A stretch of 61,950 bases of DNA, counting the filler, from Hausera hauseri (Eukaryota): assembly GCA_046269625.1 (NCBI GenBank). It is 11 parts of 11 records of this genome, joined end to end, with 100 filler letters (N's around TTAATTAATTAA, not from the genome) between each part and the next. Parts side by side here need not be neighbours in the genome. Positions count along the whole stretch, not along the records: positions 28,662 to 32,679 come from JBJURY010816308.1; 10 more parts are not named here. The stretch is one strand, 5' to 3'. Of this stretch, positions 10,666 through 55,449 are shown piece after piece. Within the stretch, counting starts at the first letter, position 1, and the number at the start of each line of letters is the position of its first letter. The notes under the pieces were generated by a model. It was not told the DNA's origin. It searched no databases and was given only the letters and a program-made list of their open reading frames with translations. Both the position numbers and the translations under genes were made by a program.

Positions 10666-11089
10666 TTTTTCTTTCAAACGACGAAGTCTACAAATCAAAT
10701 CATTATCAAACTCATAAAACATTAATCAGCGTTTAACCCAATTACTAAATTTCACTGAACGGACAACGAACGAAGAGCGATGCCCCTTGGAAAAGGCAAA
10801 GTAGTTCAAATATTTAGTTGACTGGATATTGCTAATGTTGAAGACGAGTCATCGACCTTTCCTTGTTGTTTCATAGCAATAAAATTAATGACATTGTTGA
10901 AATGATTCGATATGGGCTCGCCTTCGTTGTGAATAACCAGTAAATAATTCGGATGTTATCGATTAGATTATTCAATCTCGTCACTGACACATCAACAGGG
11001 TAGAGTTGGAAAATTTACAGAAATCTGCTCAGTCACTCGATAAGGAGTTGAGCTTTCCTTGCTACATCTATACATTCGTTTGCCCATAC

Positions 11090-11694
11090 CGATGCGAACT
11101 GGTCTGAACGATTATGCAGCGGTGATGTTATTGTCATTGACGATTTACTTCAAGAAGCCGCGAAACAAACCGATTTCAACAACCTGTTCACGAAGATTGC
11201 ACGGCACCGTGGCGTAACGGTAATTTTCATTACGCAAAACATGTTCCATCATGGCGGACAGCACCAAACAAGAATTATCAACGTACACTATTTGGTGTTA
11301 TTCAAAAACCACCGTGATCAGACTATCATTGATTACGTTGTGCGACAGGCAATTCCTCACAACCGGTCCTACTTGATAGATGCATATTATGATACTACGA
11401 CCGAGCCACACGGATATTTGTTCACTGACTTCATCAAGAATTTCAATCAGAACTGGAACCATGAGGTTTTCCGAACTTCAGCAATCAACACAAAACAATC
11501 GCCCGTCATGTACGTTTTGGAAGATGAGAATGGTGAGGAGATACGTGGTAAATTCTACGAACAGGAACTGCAGGTACTGTCAGAGAAACTGACGTATATC
11601 GTATTCATGCGTCAGAGGTTCGAATAAACAATATTTTGTCAAGTGACACGAATACACCAAACCCAGCTGGATATTTGCATCGCAGATTGAATGA
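11090..11694 (+). pseudogene. A32/FtsK-like packaging ATPase 3' part fused in frame to the integrase C-terminus
   Basis: VIVIDDL Walker B, ARHRGVTVIFITQN, YLVLFKN, HGYLFTDF, then directly IKNFNQNWNHEVF..GKFYEQELQ from the integrase. Confidence 0.88.
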
Positions 11695-13202
11695 TGAACA
11701 CTTACTTGATACTTGATAGTGACAAGTCATCATCACAGAATGACAACAATACAGCTGAACGGTCTACCATGGCGTTGTATCAGCCTCTCGAATTACGCGC
11801 GGGAACCTGGGAAGTGGCTCTGACGGAATTCACATTTACATTTTCACCCAAATCAATACGTGAGAAAAGCGGCATTTACTTTACCCGACTAGAAAAATAC
11901 CCTGTTTCAAGCCGTTTAGAGTTAATCCGAAACTCTAACAAATATATTCTTCGCAATTATTCGCAATACACTTTCGCGGTTTATGCTTATTTTTCAAACT
12001 ACCGTATGAAACTAACACATCGACATCCCATGGAATTGCAGTTTACATCTATAGCTGATACTCAGGCATGGGGTTTTCAATTAGACAATGTACGTTCGAA
12101 AGGTCTACGGCTAGGTGGACATGTTGTAATTGGTGAAAAATACATGGTGTTGCCAAGCAACAGTTGTACTAAGACTCGTCCGACTAATTCAGCCAGTGAA
12201 TACGTTGTAGATTGGGGCAATCCTTTGGATTTATCTGGAAAATGGGAGGTTGCACTGACGGAATTTAACTTTCTCTACATACCGGCGACATTGAAAGGTA
12301 GTATGAATATAACGTACAACAAGACTTTTCTGAAACCAAAACGCATTCTTGTCCTCTGACACTAACTAACAATAAAATAACCGTTGGAAAATCTTCCATT
12401 TGCACGACCAGTACAAATTGCGATTCACACGGCAAGATCGGTGTTTGTATTTTAGGGAAAACTTAAATTTTGTGGAAATTTTGAATTTGCTGTCACATTT
12501 GAGTTCTCTGATATGGCGCAAAAATTCGGATTAAAAAAAAGACTATAAAGGTTAAAATATTAAAAATGAATATACAATTGCTCCAAGATTAAGTCCCATA
12601 CATTACCATACAACGGTGAAATTTACCTATACAGCACAAAGGGTGTCAACGTCATATGTATCGATTGGCGACATGTCTAATGCGAATTTGTAGCATATCA
12701 CTATCAACACTTTTCAAATCAAAAGTACAAGGAGATATTTAAAGTTTTCAAGTCAGATGCAAATGGGTACATTAAATTTGAACTGGTTAAGAACATTGTC
12801 GACATATTATTGGACAAAGCTTTAGCAATGGTATTGGCTTTTCAAAAACAGCGGTTTGAGGCGTGGAATACGTAGACGGCGGCACATATTGCAACACTTA
12901 AACCCAAACTGAAAACGGGACTAAGTCAAATGTACATTTACGTGAACGTCACCGAAACGATTTTGGTGGGTGGAGTACGTATACCGCTACTTCGTGCAAT
13001 TTATCCGGAAAGCAGCAAGTATACTGTTTGCGACAATGTTACTGTCAAGCTCGATAATCCAATGTACCTACCTGTGGCATCTACATCTATAAACAATGTT
13101 GACGTGAATACCAGATATGAGGCCGGCTACTTTATTGAATTTCCATACGGTGCCACAATCAGTCTAACTCTTCATTTCCATCAAAACCAACAACATAATT
13201 GA
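11691..13202 (+). pseudogene. Minor capsid (penton-like) protein; hybrid of paralog 1 N-half and paralog 2
   Basis: Two WEVALTEF motifs; LPSNS..NSASEY start motif; C-terminal YIYVN..VGG..PLLR..NPMYLPV..LTLHF. Confidence 0.85.
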
Positions 13203-13564
13203 TTCTGAAATTGCTTCCATTTACAGTAAACCGTAGCAGGGCGATGAACTGCCGTATTTCGTTGGTAAACAGTATGGCTCTGGATGGTTGCGTACATTGG
13301 CACGTTTAGCATTTCCAGTGTTGAAGCATATTGGCGCCGTGGCAGCAAAAATAGCACAGAACGTACTATATGAAAACAAATCAATTTTACCATAACTGAA
13401 GGAACACGCCTTGTCAGAAATAAAAAGCGCTGCACCGGGAGTCGTTGAATCAATCAAAAAACAATTAGCTGGTAGTGGCTTGATGAGAAAACGTAGACGT
13501 GGTAGATCAGCTAGCTTTTCAACTATAAACAAACGTCGTCGTCGTACGATTTTCGATAAATTGA
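13195..13564 (+). pseudogene. QxGxG-motif basic protein (putative virion core protein), copy A
   Basis: Homologous to 22954-23316 and 46811-47173; ATG>ATA and two in-frame stops. Confidence 0.75.
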
Positions 13565-13583
13565 CTGACGGACAGACATACAA

Positions 13584-14819
13584 ATGGCATCTGCAAAATC
13601 GGAATTGTGCATATTTGACAAGGCGGCGCCACAAGTCTTTATTGACAATGCGGCATTTGAAGAAATCTACCCCATTGATTCGGTTTCAACGGACGATAAC
13701 ATTGACATTCTATTCAACATTATGGCATCGGACAATGAATACCTGGATTTGAACGATACGCTACTCTATGTAAAAGTCATTGTTAAAAAGGACGCGGCAA
13801 CGGTTCTCGCTGCAACAGACACTGTCACACCGGCCAATTACCTTTTCCTCACACTGTTCCAGGAGGCTTCACTGACTCTAAACATCATCAAAATCGAAGG
13901 CAACACCAGTCTATACAGTATCAAAGCACTCATTGAAAGGGCTCTGAATTACAGTACCGACACGAAAAGGACTCATTTGACGAAAATCATCGGATATGAC
14001 GCCACTGCAGCAAACTGTCAGGCATATGTGGCAGAATCAAAAGCACTTACAATGTGTGGATCGCTGTACTTTGACTTTTTAGATCAGCTGAAATACCTAC
14101 TGCCTGGTGTTAAAGCCATGATTCGGCTCAAACGCAGCGACAATGTCTTTTGTTTGAAAACCGCAGTTGCAAATCTCAAGCCCATACTGAAAATTACCGA
14201 GGCACGATTATACGTACGTCGTATAAAGGTAGAACCATCTGCGCTTATGGGTCATCGATTGGGCTTTGAAACTCAAAATGCCTGTTACCCAATACAACGC
14301 ACAGAACTCGTGTTTTATACCATAACCAAAGGTTCAACTACGTTTTACAAAGATGCACTGTTTAGCGACATACGATTGCCGAAATTTGTGCTCGTTACAT
14401 TTCAAACGACTGTTCAACAAACGGGTAGTAATACCATCCATTCGGAAACGTTTACCCATAGCAATGTGAATTACATAAGTTTGGGTCGGAATGCGGATTT
14501 CATTGAGACATACAAACAAGACTTTGAGTCTAATGATTACGTTTGCACATATATGCAATCTATCGTGTGCAACACGGGTTTGCTGAACAAAAATGTCAAC
14601 AATGGCATATCGATGGATTTGTTCAAGTCCACCTATCCATTCTTCACCTTCGCGCTGGCTCCGAACTATGGCGTTGAACAGACTCAACTACCTCAGCAGG
14701 GAAACCTGCGACTGGAGGTTCACTTTGCTAAAACGTTGGCGCAATCTACCGTAATGTACATTTACGGTGTATTTGATGCCGATGTTGAAATAACAAAAAA
14801 CGAAACCGTCATTGTATAA
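13584..14819 (+). CDS. Polinton/adintovirus-type major capsid protein (double jelly-roll), open 411-aa ORF
   Basis: N-terminal KSELCIF..Q..I..IYP..YLDLNDTLLYV; YLLPGV; C-terminal GNLRLEVHF..YGVFD..EI, typical of Polinton MCPs. Lies between the core-like ORF and the protease. Confidence 0.88.
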   Translation: MASAKSELCIFDKAAPQVFIDNAAFEEIYPIDSVSTDDNIDILFNIMASDNEYLDLNDTLLYVKVIVKKDAATVLAATDTVTPANYLFLTLFQEASLTLNIIKIEGNTSLYSIKALIERALNYSTDTKRTHLTKIIGYDATAANCQAYVAESKALTMCGSLYFDFLDQLKYLLPGVKAMIRLKRSDNVFCLKTAVANLKPILKITEARLYVRRIKVEPSALMGHRLGFETQNACYPIQRTELVFYTITKGSTTFYKDALFSDIRLPKFVLVTFQTTVQQTGSNTIHSETFTHSNVNYISLGRNADFIETYKQDFESNDYVCTYMQSIVCNTGLLNKNVNNGISMDLFKSTYPFFTFALAPNYGVEQTQLPQQGNLRLEVHFAKTLAQSTVMYIYGVFDADVEITKNETVIV

Positions 14820-14863
14820 ATAAAATCCGCTTTGTCTCACCTTTTCTTCTTTGTCGTCGTACT

Positions 14864-15070
14864 ATGAAGTTGTTTATTAATATTAATATTATGCTTAATT
14901 CACATTTAGCTCCACCGAGCTCAGTCACTACAGAAAACTGCTCTTGGGCGTGAAATTTCGTGGCCTGTTTCAACTGGATAGTGTGCCACTTGATTTACGA
15001 CAAACCGGCGCCTTTATTGTCAATACACACACTTCATCGTTGCCGGGTGAACATAGGATTGTTGTGTATG
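14864..15070 (+). pseudogene. Adenain-type (C5) cysteine protease, 5' part, truncated by contig end
   Basis: FRGLF..D..AFIVNTHTSSLPGEH(R), against a consensus of NT..PGxHW. Confidence 0.82.
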
Positions 15071-15170: not shown

Positions 15171-16132
15171 CCGAGAGATTACAACTTTATCCCAGACAGA
15201 TGTGTATACAGCAAACATTAACTAGCGCCACCAATTCACTATCCCAATTAATTCTTACCGATCAACCACAGAAATTCGATACTATTGCCATCCATCTCAT
15301 TTATGGCAACTTGACAGTCAATGTCAATTTCGATGATCCTATTCTTGACATTAATCATGAACTGCTTAACAATTCTAGTGTAATTATCACAATTCCTCCT
15401 GCTGAATTATTATCCTTCACTATTTCTTCTTCAAACGATTGTCTATTTGCTGTAGAAATAACCCAACCGAAGCTCATATACACCTATAATGAGAGCTATG
15501 ATCAATTAAATTATATACCGAGACCACTACTACCAATAAACGAATATTCCTCGACACCAGAAGGATTATTTACATCCGACTTAGAATCTCTATCCGTTTT
15601 CGTAGCCTATACATACGTCACCACTCAACCCAGTCTGACAACCATTAACCAAACTATTATTGACATCACTATATTAGACTTCAAAGGCGAGATATTACTA
15701 CAACAGCAAATGTACCCCCGACATAAAGTCGTAGATTGGAGAGCACCTTTTACAGGAATAACTGATAATCTTACCCTAAATAAAATAGACAACGAAGATT
15801 TTCTACCCTACATACAAGATATTTTAAAATATAAATTCATAATAACGACACAACTCGACCTATTATTGTGTTCATTGAAACTGCCTAATACCCTTACTAA
15901 TGGTTTCTTCAATCTTAGTCACCACCCTATCGCTATCAACTTTTCAACAGACCCAATGCTTATAACTCGCCTGAGCGAGCAGTTATTACACACCACTACT
16001 ATTCCCACATATACTTCACCACTAATACAAGCTCACCTACTTAGACAATTGTATAATCTTTTGATGAATTCGTTATACATTGAAGATACTGACAATATGA
16101 ATCATAATATTATTGAGTTAAATCTCAATTAA
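15171..16132 (+). CDS. Retroelement cargo ORF with a degenerate DEDDh (REX4/ISG20-like) exonuclease domain
   Basis: IIDITILDFKGEILLQQQMYPRHKVVDWRAPFTGIT..IQDILKYKFII follows the REX4/ISG20 pattern (xSIVNxxGxxxYDxxxxPxxxVxDYRTxxSGI..ILKGxILV). The ExoI DxE is replaced by AYT. Possibly 5'-incomplete at the contig start. Confidence 0.55.
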
Positions 16133-21000: not shown

Positions 21001-22679
21001 GAGTACGTCTGAAATTGCAGGGAAAGGATAACACAAATTAAACCATCTGCTGGTGAAAGATATTTGTTACTATATATGAAAAATTAATTTCAGTAGAACT
21101 TCATAGTTGGTNNNNNNNNNNNNNNNNNNNNNNNNNNNNNNNNNNNNNNNNNNNNTTAATTAATTAANNNNNNNNNNNNNNNNNNNNNNNNNNNNNNNNN
21201 NNNNNNNNNNNAAAACCGAAATCTATTTTGTAATGCTAAGTATATATATAATTTAGGAGAACAAAATTAAAAACATACCATTTGTCGTACTATTCATTCA
21301 AATAACGCCATGCTATTTACACACCACTATTTATATCCGACCATCAAAATTAAAACAAAAAATTTTTTGGCGCGAAATTCAAATTTTACACCTACCTAAA
21401 ACCCGTGAAGTACTCGTGCTTGTGTGCGTTCACTTTGTGACTGTATATCCTATCTCCGCCCTATTAATCGTGCGTGTGTGTACCGTTTTTTCTACCCAAT
21501 GACTCATCCCGAACCACTTCTCTTCCTTCCTTCAATGTGGGTCTGTTGTTGTGTCCTCCTTTCTACCTACTCAAAAGCCGTTCAAAGAACATGCTACCGA
21601 TCTTTATTTTGGTGTGTAGAATGGGGGAATGACAAAGTTCTTCGAAATATTGATCAAGTCACCCTTTTTTCCGACAAGTTTCCTCTTAATAACCATCTTC
21701 TCAAATTCTTCATCTCTTTCAGGATATTTCGCAAAGTCGATATTATTAGGTTCACTCAATTTTCTCTTTCTGAAAGGCTTTTGGTACCACAAGCATGGGT
21801 GATTCATGGCACAACTTAATGCAAAATTCCTTATGCGAAACGAGAGATCTCCACCTAAGTAAACGGTATTACCAGTTTTCACAAGAGCTTCATAGGGTTT
21901 CTCGTCAACGTGATCTTTCAAAGCATTATAGGAGTCAGCACCTTGTCAACAGTGCAAAGGGAGAAAATTATAATACGATGAAGGCTTTGAATGGAAAATC
22001 AAGGCAGCCTAGAGACTACGCGTCCATATTTTTATCAAGTGACATCAACAATTTCCTTTCCAACTTACCATTCAAATGAGGTCGTAGAATTCGTTCTTCA
22101 ATGACTCGAGCAGAATAAACCAATACAAATCCATAAACAGTCATGTTTTCGTGTCGAATAAGCTTCTCAAAATTTCTCTTTGTTGCATCAAGAATACTCT
22201 TCGAGGTTATTGGAGAACCGAAAAAATTTTTTGCAAATAAGTTAACTTTTCCAATTCCCATATTAGTCAGTTTCATGACTCTTTTAAAGCCAAGCGGTTT
22301 TTCAGGTGAAGCAGGATTTGAATTGGAAGAGTTGCTTCTTCTGGCTTCATTCATGCTTCGGCATCTTGCAGCCTTGGCAATATGCGCCGTATTTCTTGAT
22401 TGTCTCTTCCATTGTTTTGAGCTCTTGATAGCCAAATATTTGTTAAATGCCCAGTGCAATCGAAATTTGTACTTTAAGAACTACATTGGGCAATATTTTG
22501 TGAAGCCCGGGTTGAGGCTTTTATCAAGTTTAAACTACCAATTGTCAATGGTCCTTTGTCTCTCAGCACGCAACAATACTTAAAGTTGTTTACTAGTACT
22601 TTCTTCAAATTAAGCGTGTTATGTTTTGCCTTTCGTCAACCCATCTAAAAGACATATATGATAATACATAAAAAACATA

Positions 22680-22957
22680 TAATGGTATTTGGCCGGTGTG
22701 ACAGTATCTGTTGCAGCGAGAACCGTTGATGCATTCTTTTTAACAATGCCTTTTACATAGAGTAGCCTATCGTTCAAATCGAGATATTCACTGTTTGATG
22801 CCATAATGTTAAATTGAATGTCTATGTTATTGTCGGTTGAAACCAAATCAACGGAGTAGATTTCTTTAAATGCTGCATTGTCAATAACAACTTGTGGCGC
22901 GCCTTTGTCAAATATACATAATTCAGATTTTGCCGATGAAAATTGTCTGTTTTTCAA
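22680..22957 (-). pseudogene. Major capsid protein 5' fragment
   Basis: Closely similar to the first ~87 aa of the MCP at 13584; homology stops after VTPAKY. Confidence 0.88.
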
Positions 22958-23316
22958 TCGAAAATCGTACGACTACGACGTTTGTTTATAGTTAAAAAGC
23001 TAGCTGATCTACCACGTTTTCGATTTCTCAAGCCACTGCCAGCGAATTGTTTTTTGACTGATTCAAAGACTTCCGGTGTACAGCTTTTTATTTCTGACGA
23101 GGCGTGATTCTTCAGTGATGGTAAAATCGATTTGTTTTCATACAGTTCATCCTGTGCTATTTTTGCTGCCACGGCTCCAATACGCTTCATTACCGGAACT
23201 GCTAAACGTGCTAATGTACGCAACCATCCATAACCATACTGTTTACTAACCAAATACGGCAGTTCATTGCCTTGCTGGGGTTTACTGTAAATGGAAACGA
23301 TTTCAGAATCAATCAT
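22954..23316 (-). CDS. QxGxG-motif basic protein (putative core / membrane-lytic precursor)
   Basis: QQGN, QYGYG followed by amphipathic WLRTLARLAVPVMKRIG; Arg-rich C-terminus ending RTIFD. Confidence 0.7.
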   Translation of the reverse strand: MIDSEIVSIYSKPQQGNELPYLVSKQYGYGWLRTLARLAVPVMKRIGAVAAKIAQDELYENKSILPSLKNHASSEIKSCTPEVFESVKKQFAGSGLRNRKRGRSASFLTINKRRSRTIFD

Positions 23317-23319
23317 GTT

Positions 23320-24368
23320 GTTGGATTCGATGCAAGTAAAGAAATACGGAAATCCAATAAGCTAGTCCGCGTCACATCGGATATTCACTTCAACATTGTT
23401 TATAGATGTAGATGCTACAGGTAGTCACGTTAGATTATCGAGCTTAACAGTGACTTTGTCGCCGACAGAATATTTTCTGCTTTCCGAATAAATTGCACGG
23501 AGTAACAGTACACGTACTCCACCAACCAAAATCGGTTCGGTGACGTTCACGTAAATGTACATTTGATTTAGTCCAGTTATCAGTTTGGGTTTAAGTGTTG
23601 CAACATGTGCCGCCGCCTTCTTCGCCCCAAACCTCTGTTTACAAAACCAAATACCATGGCCAAAGCTTTGTCCAATAAAATGTCGACAATATCCTTAGCC
23701 AGTTCAAATTTATTGTACCTATTTGCATCTGACTCAAAAACTTTAAATATTTCATTGTACTTTTGATTTAAAAAAAACTGTTGACAGAGATGTGCTACAG
23801 ATTCGCAATAGACATAGTCTCCAATGATACGTATGACGTTAACACCCTTTCTATTATATTGGTAAATCTCACGGTTGTCTGGTACTGTACGGGACTTAAT
23901 CTTGGAGCAACTGCATATTCACTTTTGATATCTTTACCTTTGTACTCTGTATTTTTGAACCCAAATTTGTGCGCCATATAACAGGACTCAAAGGTGACAG
24001 TAAATTCAAAATTCGCCATAAAATGTGAGTTTTTACACTAAAATAAAAACACCGATCTTGCCGTTGGAACCGTAATTTTTACTCGTCGTGCAAATGGCCG
24101 ATTCTCCGACTGTTATTTTATTGCCAGTAAGTGTCAAAGGACAAGAATGTGTTTTAAATTCAGTAACAGTCTTGTTGTACGTTATTTTCATACTACCTTT
24201 CAATGTCATAGGTGCGTAGGTAAAGTTAAATTCCGTCAGTGTAACCTCCAATTTTCCAAATAAATCCAAAGAATTGTTCCAATCTACAACGTATTCACTG
24301 GCGGAATTGTTCGGATGAGTCGTCGAACAACTGTTGTTCGGCAACATCATGTAAATACTCATATTCAC
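23320..24368 (-). pseudogene. Minor capsid protein paralog 2
   Basis: YMMLPNNS..NSASEY..LEVTLTEF; homologous to 12140-13202. Confidence 0.83.
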
Positions 24369-24399
24369 AATGATGTCAATGATGATTATGCAGTTTGTT

Positions 24400-25466
24400 T
24401 TTTATCGACGATGACGTAGAAAATGTAACGTTAAATGTGTCGTTGACCCAAAAAGAAATTTAATGGGTTCCCAAATTCAACAGTCATATACATGGAAATA
24501 CTGTGCACAATATTATGAGACAATAATAAGTACATAGATCTGAGCATATTAACGCGAAAATTTTCACCGATGTTTTGTATGTGTCAGAATCCAGTTTCAT
24601 AGAAGTCAGTAGTTGTTTACGTTCTCCACCAACGAGTACGAATTCGGTTAAGTCCGTTAAAATGTTGATTCTATGAAATGCTCCATAGAGTTACGCTTTG
24701 TATTTGGTAACAATAGATCGTCCAACAATGTTTTGATAGAATTCGCGTTTTGAAAAACCCAGATTCCAAGCCAATAATTCATCAAAGGCAAAATATGTAA
24801 CATTGGCACGTAGAATAATAGAAATATAACCATCTGTGTTTATTTCACGTGTTTACGGCTAATGTAGCCGTTTTCTTGACGTACTCACACAATTCCATTT
24901 CCGTTTCCATTAATAAATCATGTTGTATAATATATGAGCGGAAGACGGATTCTGACCTAGTCCACTTTACTATAATATCGGATTCCGCAATGGATGAAAG
25001 GTCCAATTTTTCACCAATTATAACATGGCCACCTAGCCGTAAACGTTTTGAGTGTACATTGACTGATTGAAAACCCCATGCCTGAGCACCAGCTATAGAA
25101 TTAAACTGCATTTCAATGGGTTTCCATGCACTAGTTTTATACGGTAGTTTGAAAAATAAGCACAAACCGAGAAATGTTGTCGCGAATAATTGCGAAGAGT
25201 ATATCGGTTATTGTGTCGGATTGTCGCAAGCGACTTGAAATAGGTTACGTTTCTTGTCGGGTAAAGTAAATACCACTGTTTTGATGTATTATCATTGGTC
25301 AAAATGTAATTGTGAATTCTGTCAAAGCCACTTACCAGGCTCCCTGACGTAAATCGACCGGTTGGTCCAAGTGTATGGTAAACTGTTTAGCGGTATTGTC
25401 ATTGTCGTCGTGTTGTGATAATGATCTGTTACTATCAAGTACCAAGTAAATGCCGCTGCTGCTCAT
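24400..25466 (-). pseudogene. Minor capsid protein paralog 1
   Basis: YLVLDSNRS..NTAKQFTIHLDQPVDLRQGAW; C-terminal VLVGGERKQLL. 3' boundary approximate. Confidence 0.75.
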
Positions 25467-26492
25467 TGAATCTGTGATGCAAAAATCCGACTCGGTGCAG
25501 TGTATCCGTGTCACTTGACGAGATATTGTTTATTCGAACCTTTGCCACGTGAAGGTAGAATTTCCTTAATACGATATATATCGGGTTTCTAGGACAGTAC
25601 TTGCAGTTCATGTTCGTAGAATTTACTGTGTATTTCCTCACCGTTTTTATTTTCTAAAACGTACATGACAGATGTTTGTTTTGTGTTGATTGTCGAAATG
25701 TGGAAAACCTCATCGCGCCAGTTCTGATTGAAATTCTTAATGAATGGCGTCGTACTTATTTCGATATACGTACGTAAGCACCAATTTTATATTTTGAGCG
25801 TTTAATTGAATCTCGTTGTGTTTGGTTTTGATAAAGCCACACATCCAAATCATCTATTTCAACCGGCGCATTCTGTTTATTCCACGGTGTGTCAAATGAT
25901 TGTATGCATTAATAATATCCGGTAGTACACCTACCAAGCGTTTGTTGCTTTGCTTCGTAAAGAATTTGTTTAGGCGACCGCGCAATGTTCGATTAAATCG
26001 TTCAACGAGTGCAGCATTGTATTGGGAAGACACCGAGTAGTGGTTAACTCCGAACCTTTTCAAGACCGCTGCAACGTAAACATTGTAGAATTCCTTACCT
26101 AAATCCGTTTGTAAATGCTTCGGCTGTTGTTGTTGTTGTATCAGTGTCTGAACAGCGTCAGCGATCTCTTTACCGGATTTAGATTTCACGGCAATTGCAC
26201 GTGCAAAACGACTAAACATATCAACGCATGTCAGCACGTACCGGCACCCATCGTTCATACTGGTGTACGGAATTATTTCCATCAGATCCATTTGCCATAC
26301 ATTATTTACACCGGCTGCACGGTATGCACGAGTTGGAAACTGCCTTCTTATCGGTTTGTTTAGGCTGTATGCTAACTGTTTCCCGAGCCAACGTTGGGTC
26401 TGTTGCCGAGTCCGTTTGACAGTCTTTGCCACTTTGTCGACGCCAGTATAGCCGAAGGGATGATGCAGGTCGAACCACACATCGTCCATCAT
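25463..26492 (-). pseudogene. Polinton DDE (rve) integrase with chromo-like C-terminus
   Basis: WLGKQLAYSLNKP, WQMDL, CVDMFSRF, LQTDLGKEF, VERFNRTL, YN..HRGI; frameshifted tail with KFYEHELQ..YLVK*HGY. Confidence 0.92.
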
Positions 26493-26621
26493 TGCCGTCG
26501 ATGGTGTCGGTTTTGCTCGCATTATAACAATTAGAACGAAACGTAAATGAAAGATTAGGTGAACTGGGACAGAAAGATGAAAACCATTCACCCATATCGC
26601 CGAATCATCATATACTTATCG

Positions 26622-26960
26622 TCACTGTTTATACTGTGCTGTTGAAGAACCAGTGAGTCCACCCAGTAATGATGTGGCAATCGGTAGAATTACACCAGGG
26701 AACGCGCCATCTTGCTGGTACATAACCACTCGTTTCAGTCGTTTACTACGGGTGTTGGCAAGGCAAATGAGTCGTTTTCGATACTTTAGTAAATTCCGCT
26801 TTCCACTACCAATGTCAACGTGACCCACAAAAATATTGTATAAAATCTCCATCAAATCGTCTACTACAAACTGTGAAAATGATCGCAGCATGTTTTGCTT
26901 ATGTCTCGTAGGTTTCTTGAGCAATGCAATAAAGTACGGCTGACCACGTTTATATCGCAT
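26622..26960 (-). CDS. Conserved small Polinton protein with a C-terminal amphipathic peptide after Q-x-x-G-(G/A)
   Basis: LMEILYNI..GHV..LLKYRKRL..L..YQQDGAFPGVILPIATSLLGGL; open in copies B and C. Confidence 0.7.
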   Translation of the reverse strand: MRYKRGQPYFIALLKKPTRHKQNMLRSFSQFVVDDLMEILYNIFVGHVDIGSGKRNLLKYRKRLICLANTRSKRLKRVVMYQQDGAFPGVILPIATSLLGGLTGSSTAQYKQ

Positions 26961-26974
26961 TTTTGGACGTATTT

Positions 26975-27176
26975 ATGTTGATGAGATGTAGTTGTTTGTA
27001 ACCGTTGCCACTGTGACAGCAATTTGCGTCTAGCTGCTGCTGTTGTTGTTCGACGAAACACAGAATTGATTAATCGCTTAACTGTAGCAGTGATTCTTTT
27101 TGATACACGTTTTTTGCCACCGGACACCCGCTTGGTAGGTTTACGTTTAACAATTGTTTTTCGGAAATTCTTCATT
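26975..27176 (-). CDS. Small Lys/Arg-rich ORF (putative DNA-condensing protein)
   Basis: MKNFRKTIVKRKPTKRVSGGKKRVSKR..; conserved in copy C (50704-50877). 3' end uncertain. Confidence 0.45.
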
Positions 27177-27188
27177 TTTTTATCATAA

Positions 27189-27831
27189 TCATGTCGTCGA
27201 TTTTCGAATTTGTTTATAGACACATACACCACCTTTCTGATTGAAAATGTCTGTTCGTACACGCATGTCATCGGGACACTGTTGCGTAAAGTCGATGAAC
27301 AAGTATCCGTGTGGTTCGGTCGTAGCATCATGATATGCATCTATCAAGTAGGCTCGATTGTGAGGAAATGCTTGTCGTGCAACATAATCAATGATAGTCT
27401 GATCACGGGGATTTTTGAACAACACCAAATAGTGTACGTTTAGATTTCTTGTTTGATGCTGTCCGCCCTGATGGAACATGTTTTGCGTAACGAAAATAAC
27501 AGTCACACCACGATGTCGTGCAATCTTTGTGAACAGATTACTGAAGTCGGTTTGTTTTGTTGCCTCTTGAAATCAATCGTAAATGACAATAACGTCACCG
27601 TTTTGTAACGTTTCAAACCAATTCTCATCGAACCCATTTTAATTTACAAAATTCCCGATGTATCAAACCGGACTCACCATCATCACCAACACCCTGATGC
27701 CAATATATGTGATTGTACCGCAGTGAATGGAACATGTCACAGTAGTTCTGCAATAGTTTACACACAAAGTGCGTTTTGCCACTTCCACCGGGGTTCACAA
27801 CCTGGAAAATTGAATCATTCTGCAACTTCAT
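27189..27831 (-). pseudogene. A32/FtsK-like packaging ATPase
   Basis: Walker A PGGSGKT, damaged Walker B, RHRGVTVIFVTQN, YLVLFKNPRD, HGYLFIDF. Confidence 0.92.
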
Positions 27832-28661: not shown

Positions 28662-29235
28662 GCTACTCTATGGAATTATCACCCCAAGACAGTGTATCAA
28701 CAACTTTGATACGCACATTACGGGCCCTACTGAAGCCAATATCAATAATCAGATGAATCCACCGGATATCTACCGGAAGGTTGCTGAAAAACTTACGGAG
28801 AAGATTGTAATCGGAGCCGACGTTATTGAAATGGTAGTAAATCATTTCAAATGCCCAATTCGGCTTCTGGCCGGAATCCGTGACATTCTTTATCATGAGG
28901 AAATTATTCGCCAGTATCAGCTAGTGACGGGCACTTTCAAGGAATTAGCCAGAAAATTCTACGATACTAAAGGGTTTCCTCTCCGTAGCACTGCCTTAGT
29001 GCAGTGCTACCAATCCATCTATAAACAAGTTAGATGGACTGATGAGTTAATCACTAAAAATTCGGCTTCCGAAGGGGTACGAACAGCACCAACTACATCT
29101 ACGTGTGGCAGAAAAAGACATCTGCAAGTATACGAAACTATTATTGTGGACGATGAAGTATTCGAACCGGAATCCATCCGATACAAATCACGAACAACAG
29201 ATATGTTCGTCCATATACCCCTCCCAAACAATTAA
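28662..29235 (+). CDS. Hypothetical ORF of unknown function (28753-29235; possibly a 3' fragment)
   Basis: 160-aa ORF with no recognisable motif. Confidence 0.3.
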
Positions 29236-30026
29236 CAAATTTGAGTCAATTTCTTCAAACCCCCGTCGAGTCTGTGAGCTATGGCTACTGCTTACATTTC
29301 TGTGAACATTAATTATTTAACACTAGCAATCATGGCTACTATTTACATTGTGAATATTAATTATTTACGACCACATTTCTGTGGACATTATTTATCTGGT
29401 GTAAAGAAATTAATTATGTACTACTTTCAATTGATTTAGTTGCTCACGTTTTATGCATATGTCATTGTTATTATTTCTACGATCTATTCTATTTTAGTGT
29501 GTACATTGTGAATTTTTAATTAAAACTGCTATATGAAAATGACTATATAAGCAGTGTCATACTTAGTATTTTTATGAACATTTTTTTGACATTTTTCTTG
29601 CGAATATTGTGAACCTTATGACATCATGTAAGTCTACTGAGCTATAATCTTATAAGTGTATGGTAAATTTTGAATTGGTTATTAGATTGCATAGATTATA
29701 TTTTTCTTGTTTTGATTTCTATATATTTTGGGGCAAATTAAAAACAAATAACTAAGTAAGCGGAAACTAATTCGGATAATTGGTCGACCAGGTCAAAACT
29801 ACCTGACGACCGCCAAAGTAATCATAAATAATCGAATAGGATATTAAACAGTTAATGAGTAAAGTTAAATTCTTTTCACCTACTTGAAATACATTACCGT
29901 CTATCACTTAGGTATGGTGTACGACATTCCTCTGACAGTTGATATTAAAGTACGTGACTTGAAATTGTTCTACCCATTAATTAGTGGATTTACGAAAGCA
30001 AACGACTAACATTAATTAGTGAGGAT

Positions 30027-30053
30027 TGTACAAACTGGTGCCCTGACCCGGGA
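30027..30053 (+). mobile_element. 5' LTR end (..TGTACA) and tRNA primer-binding site
   Basis: CA-aac-TGGTGCCCTGACCCGGGA, resembling tRNA-Phe/His PBSs, ~130 bp upstream of gag. Confidence 0.75.
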
Positions 30054-30181
30054 TTATTATTTGAAGACCTTTAGATTAAGAAAGTATCACCATTACCACA
30101 AGAAGAGGAACAGTTTATCAACCAGAGGAAGACGAACCTTTCGGACTAGAATATTTGAGGAATTTAAGTGAAGACGAACCA

Positions 30182-31030
30182 ATGGAAAATCACAACGTGG
30201 AACAGAAGATCCAGCCAAATGCTGATTTTACCTTACCAATGAAGAGGTTCTCATGGAAAGAAGATATACAAGATTTTTAATGGAATATGAAGTATATTCC
30301 AAAAGTTTAAGCTGGGACAACAAGCAGAGAGTGTAAAGATTACCTCTTCACTTAAAAGGGACGACTCTCATGATTTATTTTCAAATGCCCGATAAAGATA
30401 AGAAGGACTGGAAAGGAATTAAAGGAAAACTGCCTAAAAAGTGTTTAATAGATCCCTTTGGAAAGGGGAGAATTCAAGAGTTTATAAGAAAGAGGCAACG
30501 TAAAGACGAAATAGTCCAAGACTTTGTCTGTGCATTGGAAAAACTTGCATCAAGAGCATATCCAGACGTAACCACAAGAAATAATGCACTACTAGCTCAA
30601 TTTCAATACGGATATGAAGAAAGATTAAGGACGATAATATCACAAACAGACCCGCTTACTTTCTATGAAGCAATAAGAAAGGCGCAAAAGGCCGAACGAG
30701 ATGCGGAACTGTATAGATGGAACAAGCCTAGAAATAATAATAACGGTTATGACAGAAGAATAAATAATAGCACTCAAAAGTATCAACGTTATGAAAGAAA
30801 CAGAAGTCTGTCACAAACGTCAGTCACAGAAGCTGAATCAGATATATAAAAGAAAGTGAGATTTAATTTACGAAACGATGGAGAAAAGATGAATTATAAG
30901 AAGAAATCCAAAAAGGATGGAAGGGGCATTACCTAATATAGATTCCGAAGGAAGATTAAAATGTTTCAATTGTAATAAATGTGGCCATACAGCGAAATCA
31001 TGTAGACTACGCAGAGGAGATTTATGAAAA
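30182..31030 (+). pseudogene. Ty3/Gypsy gag (capsid + CCHC knuckle)
   Basis: W..K..LPLHLKG; RKQRKDEIVQDF..LEKLASRAYP..AQFQYG; CFNCNKCGHTAKSC at ~30962-31003. Confidence 0.85.
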
Positions 31031-31334
31031 CGAAGTAATAAAAATAAACAAAAAAAGATCACACATCAGCTACATCAGATGAATCATCGGACAGAAAATA
31101 TGAAACGGAGAATAGTAAACAAGAAGTTAAGAAAAAAGATAAAAAGAAAGAAAGTGTCAATTATATAAACGATACACTACCTCAGCACATGAAAAAGCAA
31201 TTAGAAATAGAACTAAAAGAGTAGAAAAGACAACAGCAAAAATTGAAAGAAAATAATATCTATGTTATAGGGGAACAACCAGAAAAAAGAGCATCTCATA
31301 AAGAAAGGAAGAAAGGTAATAAAAAATCTTTGAC

Positions 31335-32679
31335 GTGGAGGTTGGATCAAGAGAAACATCAACAGAGAGGGAAGAGGTAATGAAAGAAAAGAAAAGAGGA
31401 AGAAGGAAGAGTAACCTTAGTACACCTTCATTGGATGAAGACGAACCTCAAGTTACACCAATATTCGATGAAGCTATACTAGACAAAGTAATAAGGGATC
31501 CAAGCGTAGATTTAGATGAGGAAGAGGATATTATTCAGGCAGTATTGGCTGTAGATCCTGGTAATATAATCAATATGGATAAAGCAACTACCACGATATT
31601 AAAGATAATTACTAATAAAGTAATGTTGAAAACGTTAAACGAAATCTTACCTCAATTGGTATTATCAGCCCAAGGTGCCAGTCCTGTGAGGAAAATAGCC
31701 AGGACAGTATTGGCCAAAGCCGCAGAAGATGGGAAAGGCAGGAATGAAGCTATACGAGTAACGGTAAGAGAAGGAAATCAGGATAAGAGTGTCATCAGGA
31801 TGAATGAAATAGATGATGTACAAATTTTAAGAGAAAAGATTGAGGAGTTGGAGCCTTTTTATCAAGGGATTCCTTATGGATTAAATTATTATGGAAGAAC
31901 CCTATATAATTACGATAAGTTATTGAGAATTGGATGTAGAAGTGAAAACTACAATCCAATATCAATAACCAAAATACATCCGGAGGCAAGAGTATAGTCA
32001 ACAGTAGAGAATATCCTAAGGGAAATGGAACTGCAGGAAGTAGATAACCCCATGGGTGATATACAAGATTTTACAGTTCAGACGGAAGCCAAGAGAAGAG
32101 GTAGGCCGAGAGGAACAAAAATAAGTGACATTCGCAATAGGAAAGATAGGAATGAAGAAATAGTAAGACGTTTGTTACTAGCAGGAACAAATGGCACTCC
32201 CGAATCGGTGGATACTGATCCATTACTAAGAACGTTATTGCTAGGCTACATACGTCATTTGCCTCATTTGATATGCATGCAATAATCCCAGACGAACTGT
32301 TCACAACGGTACTTAATAGCATGTTACAAATAAGTCGACAATTCTATGAGAATTTAGATGAAGAACGGATAAATGAACTACATGAGCTGGATATTTTGGA
32401 GAAGATGTTCGCAACAAAAATCATACGAGACAAAGTTCAGACGGCTATATCTTACCTTCTGTATAAAATAATAGTAATTATTCATCAAACTCAAAATCTA
32501 GAAGAGATTGAACGAAATATAAAAACAGCCGTAAAGATTTTGAAGGATACGCTAGGAAGCTGGGCTCAATGTAGAGGTGAATGGTTGAACAGCCTGATGA
32601 CTAATATAATAAGGTCAGGAGAACGAGAAAGATTAGTAGATACACCTACCGCAATGCAACCAAACGTCTCTAGACTAGG
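31335..32679 (+). pseudogene. Non-pol ORF after gag with a ubiquitin-like domain, an AT-hook and a helical region
   Basis: IRVTVREG..DDVQILREKIEE..LNYYGRTL..KLLRIG resembles the ubiquitin fold; KRRGRPRGTK AT-hook. ORFs 31335 and 32025 are in the same frame, separated by one TAG. Confidence 0.55.
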
Positions 32680-45197: not shown

Positions 45198-45603
45198 TCA
45201 CAAAAGTGAGTGTAATATAAGCCACAATAAGCAGTAATGTCCAGACGGCTTAGTCATTGGATGTTGATAATGAAGTTTGTTATATTCAGTACGATATGAT
45301 GATAATGATTGTCTTTCAATTTGAGAAACTAACGATGACGGATACTACAATCCGAGCGGTTAGAATACCCTGACGACGGTCGGATGTACGTACACAGTAA
45401 TCCAATATTTGTCCGGCAACGATGAAGTGTGTATTGATCATGAAGCCGCTAGTTTGTCGTAAATCACGCGGCACACAATCCGGTGGAAACACGCCACAAA
45501 ATTTCGCGCCCAAGAGCAGTTTTTTGTAGTGACCGAGCTCAGTGGAGGTAAATGTAAAATGTGATTGAAGGATAATAGTAGTAATCAAAATATATTACTT
45601 CAT
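45198..45603 (-). pseudogene. Adenain-type protease, full length but inactivated
   Basis: FCGVFPPD..INTH..LPDKYW (His>Tyr)..VF*PLG..YN..YQHPMTKPSGHYCL (catalytic Cys>Ser). Confidence 0.82.
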
Positions 45604-45645
45604 AGTACGACGAAGAAGACGAAAAGGTTAGACAGCGGATTTTAT

Positions 45646-46814
45646 TTATACAATGACGGTTCCATTTTTCGTTATTTCAACCTCGGCATCAAATACATCG
45701 TAAATGTACATCACGGTTGACTGCTCCAACACTTTAGCAAAGTGAACCTCCAGTCGTAGGTTTCCCTGCTGAGGTAGTTGAGTCTGTTCAACGTCGTAAT
45801 CTGGAGCCAGGACAAAGGTAAAGAATGGATAGGTGGACTTGAACAAATCCATCGATATTCCATTGTCGACATTTTTGTTCAACAAACCCATGTCGTTCAC
45901 GAGAGATTGCATATATGTCAAACATAATTGCCGGTCTCGAAATCCTGCTTGTATGTCTCAACGAAATCAACTTTCTTAACCAAACTGATGTTATTCACAT
46001 TGCTATGGGTAAACGTTTTAGAATCGATGGTATAACTGCCCGTTTGTTGAGTAGTCGTTTGAAATGTAACGAGCACAAATTTCGGCAATCGCATGTCGCC
46101 AAACAGTGCATCTTTGTAAAACGTACTTGAACCTTTTGGTATGGTGTAATAGACGAGTTCTGCGCGTTGTATCAGGTAACAGGCATTTTGTGTTTTTAAG
46201 CCCAATCGATATCCCATGAGCATAGATGGTTCTACCTTTACACGACGTACGTATAATCGTGCCTCGGTAATTTTCAGTATGGGTTTAATATTTGCAACTG
46301 CAGTTTTCAAACAAAAGACATTGTTGCTGCGTTTGAGCCGAATCATGGCTTTAACACCGGGCAGTACGTATTTCGGCAGTTGTTTTATATCCTGATGGTT
46401 TTCGTTAAATGAGTCGTTTTCGTGTCTACTGTAATTTAGAGCCGTTTCGATGAGTGCTTTGATACTGTATAGGCTGGTGTTGCCTTCAATTTTGACGCTG
46501 TTTAGGGTCAGTGAAGCCTCCTGGAACAGTGTGAAGAAAAGGTAATTGGCCGGTGTGACAATATCTCTTGCGCCGAGAACCACTGATGCATCCTTTTTAA
46601 CAATGACTTTTACATACTGTAACGTGTCATTTAAATCGAGATATTCATTGTCTGACGCCATAATGTTAAATTTAATGTCAATGTTGTCGTCCATTGAAAC
46701 AAAATCAACGAGGTAGATTTCTTCAAATTCTGAAGTGTCAATAACCATTGGTGGTGCGCCTTTTTCAATTATACACATTTCAGATTTTGCAGGTGTTATT
46801 TGTCTGTCAATCAA
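45646..46814 (-). pseudogene. Major capsid protein, frameshifted with an internal deletion
   Basis: Aligns with 13584-14819; break at ~45918; the LTMCGSLYFDF region is missing. Confidence 0.9.
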
Positions 46815-47173
46815 TCGAAAATCGTACGACGACGACGTTTGTTTATAGTTGATGAGCTCGATGATGCTCTACGGCGTTTTCTCATCAAGCCTTCGGCAGC
46901 GAATTGTTTTTTGAGTGATTCAACGACTCCCGGTGCAGCGCTTTTTATTTCTGACAAGGCGTGTTCCTTAAGTGATGGTAAAATCGATTTGTTTTTATAT
47001 AGTACGTTCTGTGCTGTTTTTGCTGCCACGGCTCCAATACGCTTCAACACTGGAAATACTAAACGTGCCAATGTACGCAACCATCCAGAGCCATACTGTT
47101 TACTAACGAAATACGACAGTTCACCGCCTTGCTGAGGTTTACTGTAAATGGAAACGATTTCAGAATGAATCAT
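46811..47173 (-). CDS. QxGxG-motif basic protein, copy C
   Basis: QQGG, QYGSG-WLRTLARLVFPVLKRIG, RRRTIFD. Confidence 0.7.
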   Translation of the reverse strand: MIHSEIVSIYSKPQQGGELSYFVSKQYGSGWLRTLARLVFPVLKRIGAVAAKTAQNVLYKNKSILPSLKEHALSEIKSAAPGVVESLKKQFAAEGLMRKRRRASSSSSTINKRRRRTIFD

Positions 47174-50100
47174 GTTTCTGTTGTTGGTTTCGACGGAAAT
47201 GAAGAGTTAGAGAGGTTGCGGTACCGTATGGAAATTCAATAAAGTAGCCCGCGTCACATCTGATTTTCACTTCAACATTGTTTATAGATGTAGTTTCAAC
47301 AGACAAGTGTATTGGATTATTGAGCTTGACAGTGACATTATCTCCAGAAGTATACCGGTTACTTTGCGGACAAATCGAACGGAGTAGTGGCACACGTACT
47401 CCACCAACCAGAATCTGTTCGGTAACATTCGTGTAAATGTACATCTATTGTAGTTCGTTTTTCAGCTTTGGTTTAAGTGTTGCAACATTTGCCTTTGTAT
47501 TCGCCTCAAACCGATGTTTTTCAAAATCCAATACCATGGCCAAAGCTTTGTCCAATGAAATGTCGACAATATCCTTAGCCAGTTCAAATATAATGTACCC
47601 ACTTGCATCTGACTCGAAAACTTTAAATATCTCCTAGTACTTTTGATTCGAAAAGTGTTAACAGAGATGTGCTACAGATTCACAATGGATATTGTCTCCA
47701 ATCGATACGTATGATGTTGACTCCCTTTGTGCTGTATAGGTAAATTTCACCATTGCTGATAATGTATGGGACTTAATCTTGGAGCTACTGCATATTCACT
47801 TTTAATCTTTTTACCTTTATACTCTATATTTTTGAATTCAAATTTCTGGGCTATATCTGAGGACTCAAAGGTGACAGTAAATTCAAAATCTGCCACAAAA
47901 TGTAAGTTTTGCTCTAAAATAAAAACACCGATCTTGCCGTATGAACCATAATTTGTACTGGTCGTGCAAATGGGAGATTCTCCAACTGTTATTTTATTGT
48001 TAGTAATTGTCAGAGGAGAAGAATGTGTTTTTGTTTCAGGAACAGTCTTGTACGTTTTTTCATACTAACTTTCATTGTCACCGGTGCGTAGGGAAAGTTA
48101 AATTACGTCAGTGCAATCTTCCATTTCCAGATAAATCCAAAGGATTGTCCCAGTCTACAACGTATTCACTGGCTAAATTGTTCAGACGAGTCGTCGGACA
48201 ACTGTTGCTTGGCAACACCATGTAAATACAGTTTGTTTATTAACGACGACGTCGAAAATATAACGTCAAATGTTTCGTTGACTCAAGCAGAAGTTTAGTG
48301 GGTTCCTAAAATTCATCAAGCATATACACGGAAATATTGTGCACAGTATTGTGAGACAATGATAAGTACAAGGGTCTGAGCATATTAACGCGAACTGTTT
48401 CACTCGATGTTTTGTACGTGTCAGAATCCAGTTTGATAGAAGCCAGTAGTTGTTTACATTCTCCACTAACAAGTACGGATTTGGTTAAGTCCGTTAAAAT
48501 GTTGATTATATGAAATGCTCCATAGAGTTGCGGTTTTTATTTGGCAACAATAGATTGTCCAACAATGGTTTGATACAATTCGCTTTTTGAAAAACCCAGA
48601 TTCCGAGCCAATAATTCATCAAAGGCAAAATATGTTACACTATCATGTAGTGTAAGCGAAATATGATCATATGCGTTTAGTTCTCATGTCTTTACAGCTG
48701 ATGTAGTCATTTTCTTTACGTATTCACACAATTCCAGTTCTGTTTCCATAAATAAGTCACATGATGTAATATATGAGCGAAAGACTGATTCTTTTCTAAT
48801 CCAGTCCACTACAACTGTGGTTGTCACATTAGAGGAAATGTACAATTTTTCACCAATTATAACATGTCCACCTAGCCGTAGACCTTTCGAGCGTACATTG
48901 ATTGATTGAAAACCCCATGCTTGAGCATCAGCTATGGATTTAAACTGCAATTCCATGAGATGTCGATGTGTTAGTTTCATACGGTAATTTGAAAAATAAG
49001 CATAAACCGAGAAATTGTATCGCGAATAATTGCGAATAAATACATTTGTTAGAGTCTCGGATTAATTGTAAACGGCTTGAAACAGGGTATTTTTCTAATC
49101 GGGTAAAGTAAATATCGCTTTTCTCACGTATTGATTTGGGTGAAAATGTAAATGTGAATTTCGTCAGAGCCACTTCCCAGGTTCCCGTGCGTAATTCAAG
49201 CGGTTGGTCCAAGTCCATGGTAAAGCGTTTAGCTGTATTGTCATTCTGTGATGATGACTTGTCACTAAGTAAATGTTCATTCAATCTGCGATGCAAATAT
49301 TTAGCTGGGTTTGGTGTATCCATGCCACTTAACGAGATATTGTTTATTCGAACCTTTGTTGTGTGAACGTATAATTTCCTGAATACTATATACGTCGGGT
49401 GTTTCTGACAGTACCTGCAGTTCCTGTTCGTAGAATTTACGACGTATCTCCTGGCCATTCTCATCTTCCAAAACGTACATGAAAGGTGATTGTTTTGCGT
49501 TGATTGCCGAAATTCGGGACACCTCATCGCTTCAGTTCTGATTGAAATTCTTGATAGATGGCGTTATGCTCAGCCGCGAAATGCGTACATAATCGCCAAT
49601 TCTATATTTCGGAAGTCGATTAACTGCTTGTCGGTTTTGGTAAATCCACATGCCCAAATCATCGATTACATCAACCGGACGTAAACCATTGATTCCTCGG
49701 TGTGTCAAGTGATTGTATGCATGAATAATATCCGGAATTACCTCTATCCAGTGTTTATTGCCTTGCTTGGTGAATAATTTGTTTAGGTGACCGCGTAGTG
49801 CTCGATTAAATTGTTCAACGAGTGAGGCCTTTTATTTTGAAAATAAAGAGTAGTGGTTTACACCGAACCGACTGAAAACCGAGGCGACATGATATTTGTA
49901 AAATTCCTTACCCAAGTCCATTTGTGTGTGCTTCGGCGGCTGTTGTTCAATTAATCTGTGAACGGCGTCAGCAATCTCCTTACCGGATTTGGATTGGGCT
50001 GCAATTGCACGTGCAAAGCGACTAAACACACCAAAGCACGTCAACACATACCGATACCCATCGTTAATGCTTGCATACGGAATCATTCCCATCAGATCCA

Positions 50101-52664: not shown

Positions 52665-52960
52665 CTAGTTGATGTTTCTGCAACAGGAATGTTTTCTTCA
52701 ATTAGTATCTGAGTCATTAACCTTTGAAATACTGAGGGAGCTATTTTTAAACCAAATGGCATTCGTTTGAATTGATAAATTCCTCGTGGTACTCTAAAAG
52801 CTGTCTTGTACCTATCTTCTTTGGCAATTTTAACATGCCAGAATCCACATTGGAAATCGATCGTAATGTAAAATTCGCTGTTCTTCAGCTTTTCGATTAT
52901 TTCTTTTATTTTTGGTAGTGGAAACGTATCACTTATTATAAAGTTATTTATATGTCGAAA
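52665..52960 (-). mobile_element. Ty3/Gypsy reverse transcriptase fragment
   Basis: DTFPLPKI..IDFQCGFWHV..DRYKTAF..YQFKRMPFGLKIAPSVFQRLM. Confidence 0.9.
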
Positions 52961-53379
52961 NNNNNNNNNNNNNNNNNNNNNNNNNNNNNNNNNNNNNNNN
53001 NNNNTTAATTAATTAANNNNNNNNNNNNNNNNNNNNNNNNNNNNNNNNNNNNNNNNNNNNGGTATGGTTTACTATTGGCAAAGATTGCTGGTAATGTATT
53101 ATTACGTGCTGGGGAAAAATCTTTTCACGTAGTAAAAATCCAGTGAAGCATTAAAGGAAGCTGAAATGGATATATGACCGGCAGCCAAGTCTCATGCCAA
53201 TTTCTACACCATAGATCATGTTGATGGGCAAAAGAGGATAGTTCTAAACGCTGCATTTTCAGAATTACGAATGTGTATATGAACGTAATAAATTGGTAGC
53301 TATACCAATAAACATTACATGTATTTGTAACAATACAACAAAGTCATAACAATGCATAACAACAATATAACAATGCTAT

Positions 53380-55447: not shown

Positions 55448-55449
55448 GC

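Follow-up and report, generated by a model that had tools for sequence, protein, structure and literature searches.

What follows gag in a Ty3/Gypsy-like element whose contig yields neither a protease nor a reverse transcriptase? The question is raised by positions 30027 to 32679 of a 61,950-nucleotide stretch of the Hausera hauseri assembly GCA_046269625.1 (the window), a chain of short contigs with N linkers between them; the feature sits on one of these, the 4018-bp contig JBJURY010816308.1 (G000:C816308). A sequence-only reading had proposed that a ubiquitin-like/AT-hook ORF stands there in place of protease-pol and encodes an accessory nuclear protein. We favor a different explanation, to which we give a probability of roughly 0.55: the locus is a decayed, contig-truncated copy of a Ty3/Gypsy element, and a Bcl-2-like part of its insert would be anchored in a membrane and modulate host cell death.

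The window copy is decayed and cut by the end of its contig

The last base of the contig, 32679, is also the end of the feature. It falls about 6 codons short of the envelope signal sequence, with residue 867 of the reference frame at 32674. The frame changes near 30275, 30930-31060, 31330, and 32230, and there are several stops, one at 31995-31997; the window copy is a pseudogene, decayed and cut by the contig end.

All features of this copy lie on the plus strand. The contig begins with the 3′ part of an accessory ORF, ORF2 (28666-29235; about 477 aa elsewhere, 70% identity to ORF2 of locus L067), followed by a noncoding stretch containing the LTR (29240-30032; 68 to 80% similar to the DNA before the primer binding site in L018, L022, and L023), with the LTR ending at about 30032. 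The primer binding site (PBS), at 30036-30053, has one difference from the usual PBS of the family, and the same motif is found directly 5′ of gag in L018, L022, L023, L026, L068, L071, L072, and L073. We take it to be of the tRNA-His type; our searches for a matching host tRNA gene found none, and in L085 the PBS complement extends into T-loop-like sequence. The broken gag (30092-31330) comprises the capsid, one CCHC knuckle (30962-31003), and a charged linker, and aligns by tblastn to residues 6 to 419 of a 3,270-aa frame at about 70%. A variable spacer (32616-32679) is cut by the contig end just 5′ of the envelope signal anchor.

The LTR end, PBS, and gag with its knuckle are thus where the sequence-only reading had placed them, and no protease or RT motif occurs up to 32679 in the window contig. 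That the insert stands "instead of" protease-pol is an artefact, given that the contig stops at 32679 and other copies run in frame into env and pol; an ORF replacing pol is ruled out by the contig end and by the longer copies that carry pol. Nor is there a separate ORF after gag, the module being in gag's own frame in uninterrupted copies. What survives of the proposed accessory nuclear protein between gag and pol is an additional module after gag that is conserved and has a ubiquitin-like fold; it is neither a separate protein nor a replacement for protease-pol.

A single frame runs from Gag to a membrane tail

In intact copies, a single frame of about 3,270 aa encodes Gag, a helical segment, a ubiquitin-like domain (Ubl), an AT-hook-like motif, a Bcl-2-like domain, a signal anchor, a class III fusion glycoprotein, protease (PR), RT, RNase H (RH), integrase (IN), and a membrane tail. 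Two 3,270-aa frames are uninterrupted (in C98875 and C85546); other open frames run from gag to protease (1,893 aa) and from the module to the integrase zinc finger (2,041 aa), and the copies listed also include frames of 3,279 and 3,031 aa. Pfam finds in the 3,270-aa frames a Ty3 capsid at residues 54-207 (Ty3_capsid, E 9e-5), a CCHC knuckle at 294-309 (zf-CCHC, E 3e-4), a weak Bcl-2 match at 773-839, and Monjiviricetes_fusion at 877-1517 (E 3e-89), then protease, RT, RNase H, and integrase. The LTR, PBS, Ty3-type capsid, and PR-RT-RH-IN order place the element in Ty3/Gypsy (Metaviridae), with pol read from other copies and not from the window contig.

The element is abundant. When DNA 31323-32679 was compared with the assembly, at least 40 matches were scored among 1,578 candidates, at 78 to 100%; with a protein query, at least 150 copies were scored among 2,258 candidates. 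The sequence-only reading had offered a check, namely, whether other copies pass straight from gag to protease. Among 30 loci selected by gag (of 150 matches), 14 end too early, and all 16 that reach the module enter it. One of the 14, L135, looked like such a skip and was rejected: its PR and env tail are only 27 to 35% identical and lie upstream of gag, indicating a junction with another family. In that locus (G000:C318383), an env C terminus is followed by protease, so the assembly holds a second env-before-pol family. A copy in L028 (G000:C427697) is without most of the env ectodomain (reference residues 887-1467), with module and pol kept.

The whole plan is seen in C633218: the LTR starts at about 1,907 and the PBS is at 2,568, after which come the polyprotein, ORF2, and a 3′ LTR that runs from 13,976 up to the end of the contig; the two LTRs are 90.9% alike over 331 bp. 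The element measures about 12.4 kb as seen there and about 12.7 kb as estimated. All 30 bins of the gag-to-env stretch are covered by contigs of two runs from two studies, one of which may be the source sample; no RNA data carrying the element were among the matches listed. We are highly confident that this is a multicopy Ty3/Gypsy LTR element with Gag, Ubl, Bcl-2-like domain, class III env, and Pol in one frame.

Beyond the integrase (residues ~2800-3270 in L066 and L069) there is a signal-like segment, about 400 aa with cysteines and sequons, and a strong TM helix. Pfam gave no match in this region, which is likely a second surface protein.

The module combines helical, ubiquitin-like, and AT-hook-like parts

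The module opens with a basic patch (about 31382-31412), noted before and confirmed here, and a four-helix segment (31323-31739 together) that aligns in the outside relative P0004 and partly in another, P0003 (both described below). In the full-length AlphaFold2 model, built from 24 natural sequences with a mean pLDDT of 42, these helices are of low confidence (about 40 to 52). An acidic stretch within the segment, DEEEDIIQAVLA (31515-31550), had been read as UIM-like. The stretch is real, and its identity as a UIM did not hold up. The UIM consensus is an acidic run followed by an Ala-x-x-x-Ser helix; here the Ser is absent, P0004 lacks the Ala, and Pfam found neither a UIM nor an AT-hook in any of the 24 members at an E value of ≤1.

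The ubiquitin-fold segment fared better. At 31740-31979, AlphaFold2 predicts a beta-grasp topology (strand-strand-helix-strand-helix-strand, pLDDT about 50 to 74). Structural support comes from one search, Foldseek, in which the best match was ubiquitin (TMt 0.76, rmsd 2.6 Å, E 1.4e-3) and the matches listed were almost all ubiquitin or Ubl proteins, none reaching an E value of ≤0.001. P0004 matches PF00240 at E 0.031. Since the domain has no C-terminal diglycine, ending YNPI...HPEA with the frame running on, it is an integral domain that cannot be conjugated, and is likely a protein-docking module.

The AT-hook proposed earlier (RRGRPR, 32094-32111) is present as the AT-hook-like motif KRRGRPRG at 32091-32114, and its GRP core is kept in most copies ([RK]GRP in 19 of the 22 family rows spanning the site, and in P0004).

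The last part of the module is Bcl-2-like

The sequence-only reading had also noted a helical region near the end. The region is real; its identity, a Bcl-2-family domain, had been missed. It spans 32148-32615 in the window copy, across the frame change near 32230, with a BH2-like WxxCRGGW and a degenerate BH1. The window's own piece, taken alone, has no Pfam match, whereas the Pfam Bcl-2 family matches 36 of 42 natural copies at an E value of ≤1 (best, 4.9e-8). Run against the same assembly, PF00452 gave 22 matches at or above its curated cut-off of 31.4 bits, half of them (11) copies of the element family and the other 11 other Bcl-2 genes.

Profile and fold comparisons point the same way. 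A profile of the domain had BOK as its best match among PDB sequences (E 0.005) and matched the assembly's Bcl-2 exons at E 4e-5 with a probability of 70%. The Bcl-2 part did not resolve in the full-length model; when it was modeled by itself, the best of five models had pLDDT 65 and pTM 0.63 and the remaining four stayed at 42 to 48. All 39 Foldseek matches listed were of the Bcl-2 family, none at an E value of ≤0.001. In a VIA search of 48,161 chains, the top 29 rows were without exception Bcl-2 family (Z from 8.3 down to 5.4; about 110 residues superposed at an rmsd of about 3.3 Å), ahead of a first unrelated row at Z 5.2. For a helical domain these Z values are modest, and the call rests on the coherent ranking together with the sequence evidence. 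On fold prediction and family matches, we conclude that the domain is a predicted Bcl-2-like fold. The viral matches were led by weak vBcl-2 matches. A specific origin from BOK, the best PDB sequence match, was considered and is not claimed, as the fold ranks are tied and the assembly Bcl-2 exons score weakly.

The domain passes the curated Pfam cut-off and ranks with the family in the fold searches, but lacks the canonical prosurvival BH1 motif. NWGR occurs in none of the 42 copies; it is replaced by TREK-like sequences, the Gly position being Glu in 36 and Gly in 1, and the BH2-like WxxxxGGW is retained. The Gly and Arg of NWGR are described as important for BH3 binding (PMC9027176), and G145E in human Bcl-2 is described as abolishing Bax binding (PMC6825947). 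With cellular BOK, BAK, MCL-1, and BFL-1 and with viral KsBcl-2, GIV66, CNP058, and BHRF1, the domain shares the predicted helical fold, the BH2-like motif, and the position of a C-terminal hydrophobic anchor. It differs from them in its TREK-like sequence and in being fused within a retroelement polyprotein, and the Z values of the subfamilies are tied.

The module is under strong purifying selection

Median pairwise dN/dS was 0.031 for the Bcl-2-like domain (19 pairs), 0.071 for the Ubl (20), and 0.067 for the signal (28), compared with 0.030 for capsid (3), 0.026 for env (8), and 0.54 for the spacer (51). The helical segment gave 0.080, the AT-hook linker 0.115, and RT 0.010. These medians come from 11 natural long frames and use 3 to 51 of the 55 possible pairs, which share ancestry and so are not independent; pair numbers vary because incomplete or saturated pairs were dropped. 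The module is under strong purifying selection, with the Bcl-2-like domain as constrained as capsid.

Relatives outside the assembly

Two proteins from outside the assembly are relatives of the element. P0004, an ENA protein, keeps the module at 36% identity with the same domain order, and in an exhaustive search with the X region (X of the Gag-X-Env-Pol polyprotein) it was the sole match among 1.84 billion representatives. The A1 profile found no match among PDB sequences. No homologue of the X region was found by word index, in the ESM Atlas, or in JGI and IMG/VR contigs; these blanks are not proof of absence, because the word-index search also missed P0004. P0003, a 3,036-aa relative found through its env, has alignable helical and Ubl parts, env, three aspartic-protease-like stretches, C2H2 fingers, and pol, and has no Bcl-2-like part. 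Its N terminus, used as a query against our assembly's own sequences, was not found.

The layout is that of Burro elements in compact form

A layout of this kind has been published. The planarian LTR elements Burro1-4/GYPSM1 are giant and gypsy-like (Arkhipova and Yushenova 2019, PMC6431247, citing Grohme 2018 and Jurka 2007); they are described there as combining, in one ORF, Gag, a Ubi2/SUMO-like domain, BCL2, an env that is in frame and related to glycoproteins of mononegaviruses, and pol, and as carrying BIR repeats as well. In our literature search, as far as texts were accessible to it, that paper alone was found to describe Ubl, BCL2, and env together. The present element shares with Burro the one ORF from Gag to integrase, a Ubl and then a BCL2-like domain directly before an in-frame env, env before PR, and an accessory ORF (PMC6431247). 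It is smaller (about 12.7 kb, with a 3,270-aa frame; Burro exceeds 30 kb, with an ORF1 of 4,873 to 5,140 aa) and has one CCHC knuckle rather than 2 to 3 (PMC6431247). No Pfam match to BIR, MATH, or ankyrin, all features of Burro, was found in two whole frames at an E value of ≤0.1, and a PR-RT segment of a size suited to the dUTPase-like part of Burro gave no dUTPase match in a PDB search. Conversely, the published account, as accessible to us, mentions for Burro none of the AT-hook-like motif, the post-integrase membrane protein, or the degenerate exonuclease ORF2 (PMC6431247). Given the size and the absent extra domains, and a comparison made by description rather than by an RT tree, we call the element Burro-like and not Burro. 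The Gag-Ubl-BCL2-env-pol single-ORF layout is thus already published (PMC6431247), and the element is a compact new member. The earlier suggestion that retroelements here repeatedly carry ubiquitin-system modules fits the description of Burro (PMC6431247), and the RING ORF it invoked is real; that ORF lies on another contig.

A second comparison is with the GAG-ENV-POL errantiviruses of HSV/gB type reported in Nematoda, Bryozoa, and Platyhelminthes, including Smed_errantivirus_1-6 (Chary and Hayashi 2026, PMC13524379). Shared with these are a Ty3/Gypsy pol, a class III env between gag and pol, multiple copies, and a similar element size (PMC13524379). In the element, env is class III (HSV gB/chuvirus-like; Monjiviricetes_fusion, E about 1e-89), with a signal before it and a TM segment after it, and lies between gag and pol. 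The likeness is by description; in the main text of PMC13524379 the terms Bcl, ubiquitin, apopto-, and polyprotein do not occur, and Bcl, ubiquitin, and apoptosis were not found in its supplement by a search that also missed an element name present there.

The layout being known, what the locus adds is a small, many-copy version of Burro whose cargo can be measured. Both folds are structurally supported, and the Bcl-2-like domain is constrained at the level of capsid despite loss of the canonical BH3-binding motif. The 2019 review left open whether the apoptosis and ubiquitin domains of Burro act on the host (PMC6431247); a natural domain of 150 residues in a 12.7-kb element should be easier to test than a polyprotein of 5,000 aa.

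What the module may do

Hydrophobic segments lie at residues 869-891, 1436-1454, 1463-1487, and 3216-3247, with a weaker one near 2809, and small residues stand at -3 and -1 before xxYDC. On hydropathy, one can envision that the polyprotein would thread the ER membrane, with Gag-Ubl-Bcl-2 remaining cytosolic. The hydrophobic segment at residues 873-894 would serve twice, as the Env signal and, once signal peptidase has cut before IVAYDC, as a C-terminal anchor for the Bcl-2-like domain, in the same position as in cellular Bcl-2 proteins. The Env ectodomain would be luminal and PR-RT-RH-IN back in the cytosol; two hydrophobic segments follow the ectodomain, and this topology would fit an odd number of crossings only. 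Synthesis of the product would be in a 1:1 ratio with capsid and Env, and we imagine that the product would keep the producing cell alive or alter ER stress or death signaling, probably not via the canonical BH3 groove.

Such a function, an ER-anchored Gag extension modulating host cell death, is one to which, taken by itself, we would give a little short of even odds. It ranks first among the functions because of the fold, the anchor position, and the BIR repeats in Burro. Weighing against it are the loss of NWGR in all 42 copies, with Glu for Gly in 36; the existence of P0003, which has helical, Ubl, env, and pol parts and does without a Bcl-2-like domain; and the modest fold scores (best VIA Z 8.3, one model of five at pLDDT 65). 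The lost BH1 motif and the capsid-level constraint would suit a structural part, which for that reason comes second: a Bcl-2 fold repurposed as a matrix-like tether, anchored by the Env signal, that holds capsid at the ER membrane beside Env, the Ubl and basic/AT-hook parts aiding assembly or RNA binding. Its in-frame position would make it one-to-one with Gag and Env, and the ~50 residues before capsid leave no obvious matrix. Against this stand P0003, with Ubl, env, and pol and no Bcl-2-like part, the retained BH2-like motif, and, in the description of Burro, BIR repeats next to BCL2 that point to apoptosis control (PMC6431247); we consider it somewhat unlikely. An evolutionary version strikes us as unlikely. 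In it, the tail anchor would have come with the Bcl-2 protein at capture and would now serve as the envelope signal peptide as well; having lost the motif for BH3 binding, the protein would have turned into a structural matrix of capsid grade that connects Gag and the class III envelope at the ER. If true, the compact element would represent the Burro layout reduced to its core, a retroelement that resembles a flavivirus polyprotein in construction and uses a Bcl-2 fold as its matrix.

A nuclear accessory protein comes third, and we find it improbable. Here the basic patch would import the protein, the AT-hook would bind AT-rich chromatin, and the Ubl would engage the nuclear ubiquitin/SUMO machinery, for instance in preintegration complex tethering or antisilencing. 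The GRP motif is conserved inside a variable linker, P0004 included, the linker at residues 311-460 is rich in K/R (41 in 150 aa), the Ubl fold is supported, and the element's protease could free a soluble Ubl/AT-hook piece. Still, there is no separate ORF, no Pfam UIM or AT-hook match, and a membrane anchor at the end; a module ending in a hydrophobic signal anchor would more readily suit a product tethered to the membrane than one free in the nucleus, and the Bcl-2-like domain, the most conserved part, would be left unexplained. As for the reading that the module is a captured host fragment evolving neutrally, or an assembly chimera, the assembly is indeed fragmented and mixed, with at least 6 different COX1 genes plus a flatworm-code COX1. 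Selection and the multicopy data nevertheless refute this reading, which is scarcely credible in the face of the copy number (150 or more scored), the several frames that reach 3,000 aa or more, dN/dS of 0.03 to 0.08, the same order in P0004, and contigs of two studies' runs covering all 30 bins.

Host, ORF2, and other ORFs of the window

The assembly holds six full-length COX1 genes of 70 to 88% mutual identity, one with vertebrate-type codon use, and a further COX1 (L161, L164) that reads best with AAA as Asn, flatworm-like. In L086, L088, and L155-L164 we saw Bcl-2 exons that look fish-like by eye, along with at least 7 animal COX1 types, and for these reasons we conclude that the assembly mixes several organisms. 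A flatworm host would fit, in a mixed assembly in which the element is not tied to one host.

In C633218, ORF2 is located downstream of pol and before the 3′ LTR. It looks like a catalytically degenerate DEDDh/ISG20L2-like exonuclease by sequence, with a weak match to ISG20L2 in the PDB (E 0.09); DEDDy ORF3s are described in rotifer LTR elements (PMC5408684). As ORF2 normally sits at the 3′ end of the element, the piece at 28666-29235 would come from a preceding copy or from a join across the LTR. ORF2 upstream of LTR and gag was seen in six loci (window 28664-30053, L023, L025, L072, L075, and L154), implying head-to-tail tandems with one shared LTR or short-read joins across the LTR. ORF2 (L067:117-1547) also aligns weakly with a window ORF at 15173-16129 (E 7e-4, probability 27%), which lies 5′ of the RING-finger ORF on another contig (16133-17422; Pfam zf-C3HC4, E 2.5e-6). 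Elsewhere in the window, three related blocks (~11000-14900, 22600-27600, and 45400-56000) carry, by eye, capsid-, ATPase-, integrase-, and DNA-polymerase-like ORFs; these are presumably Polinton/adintovirus-like copies.
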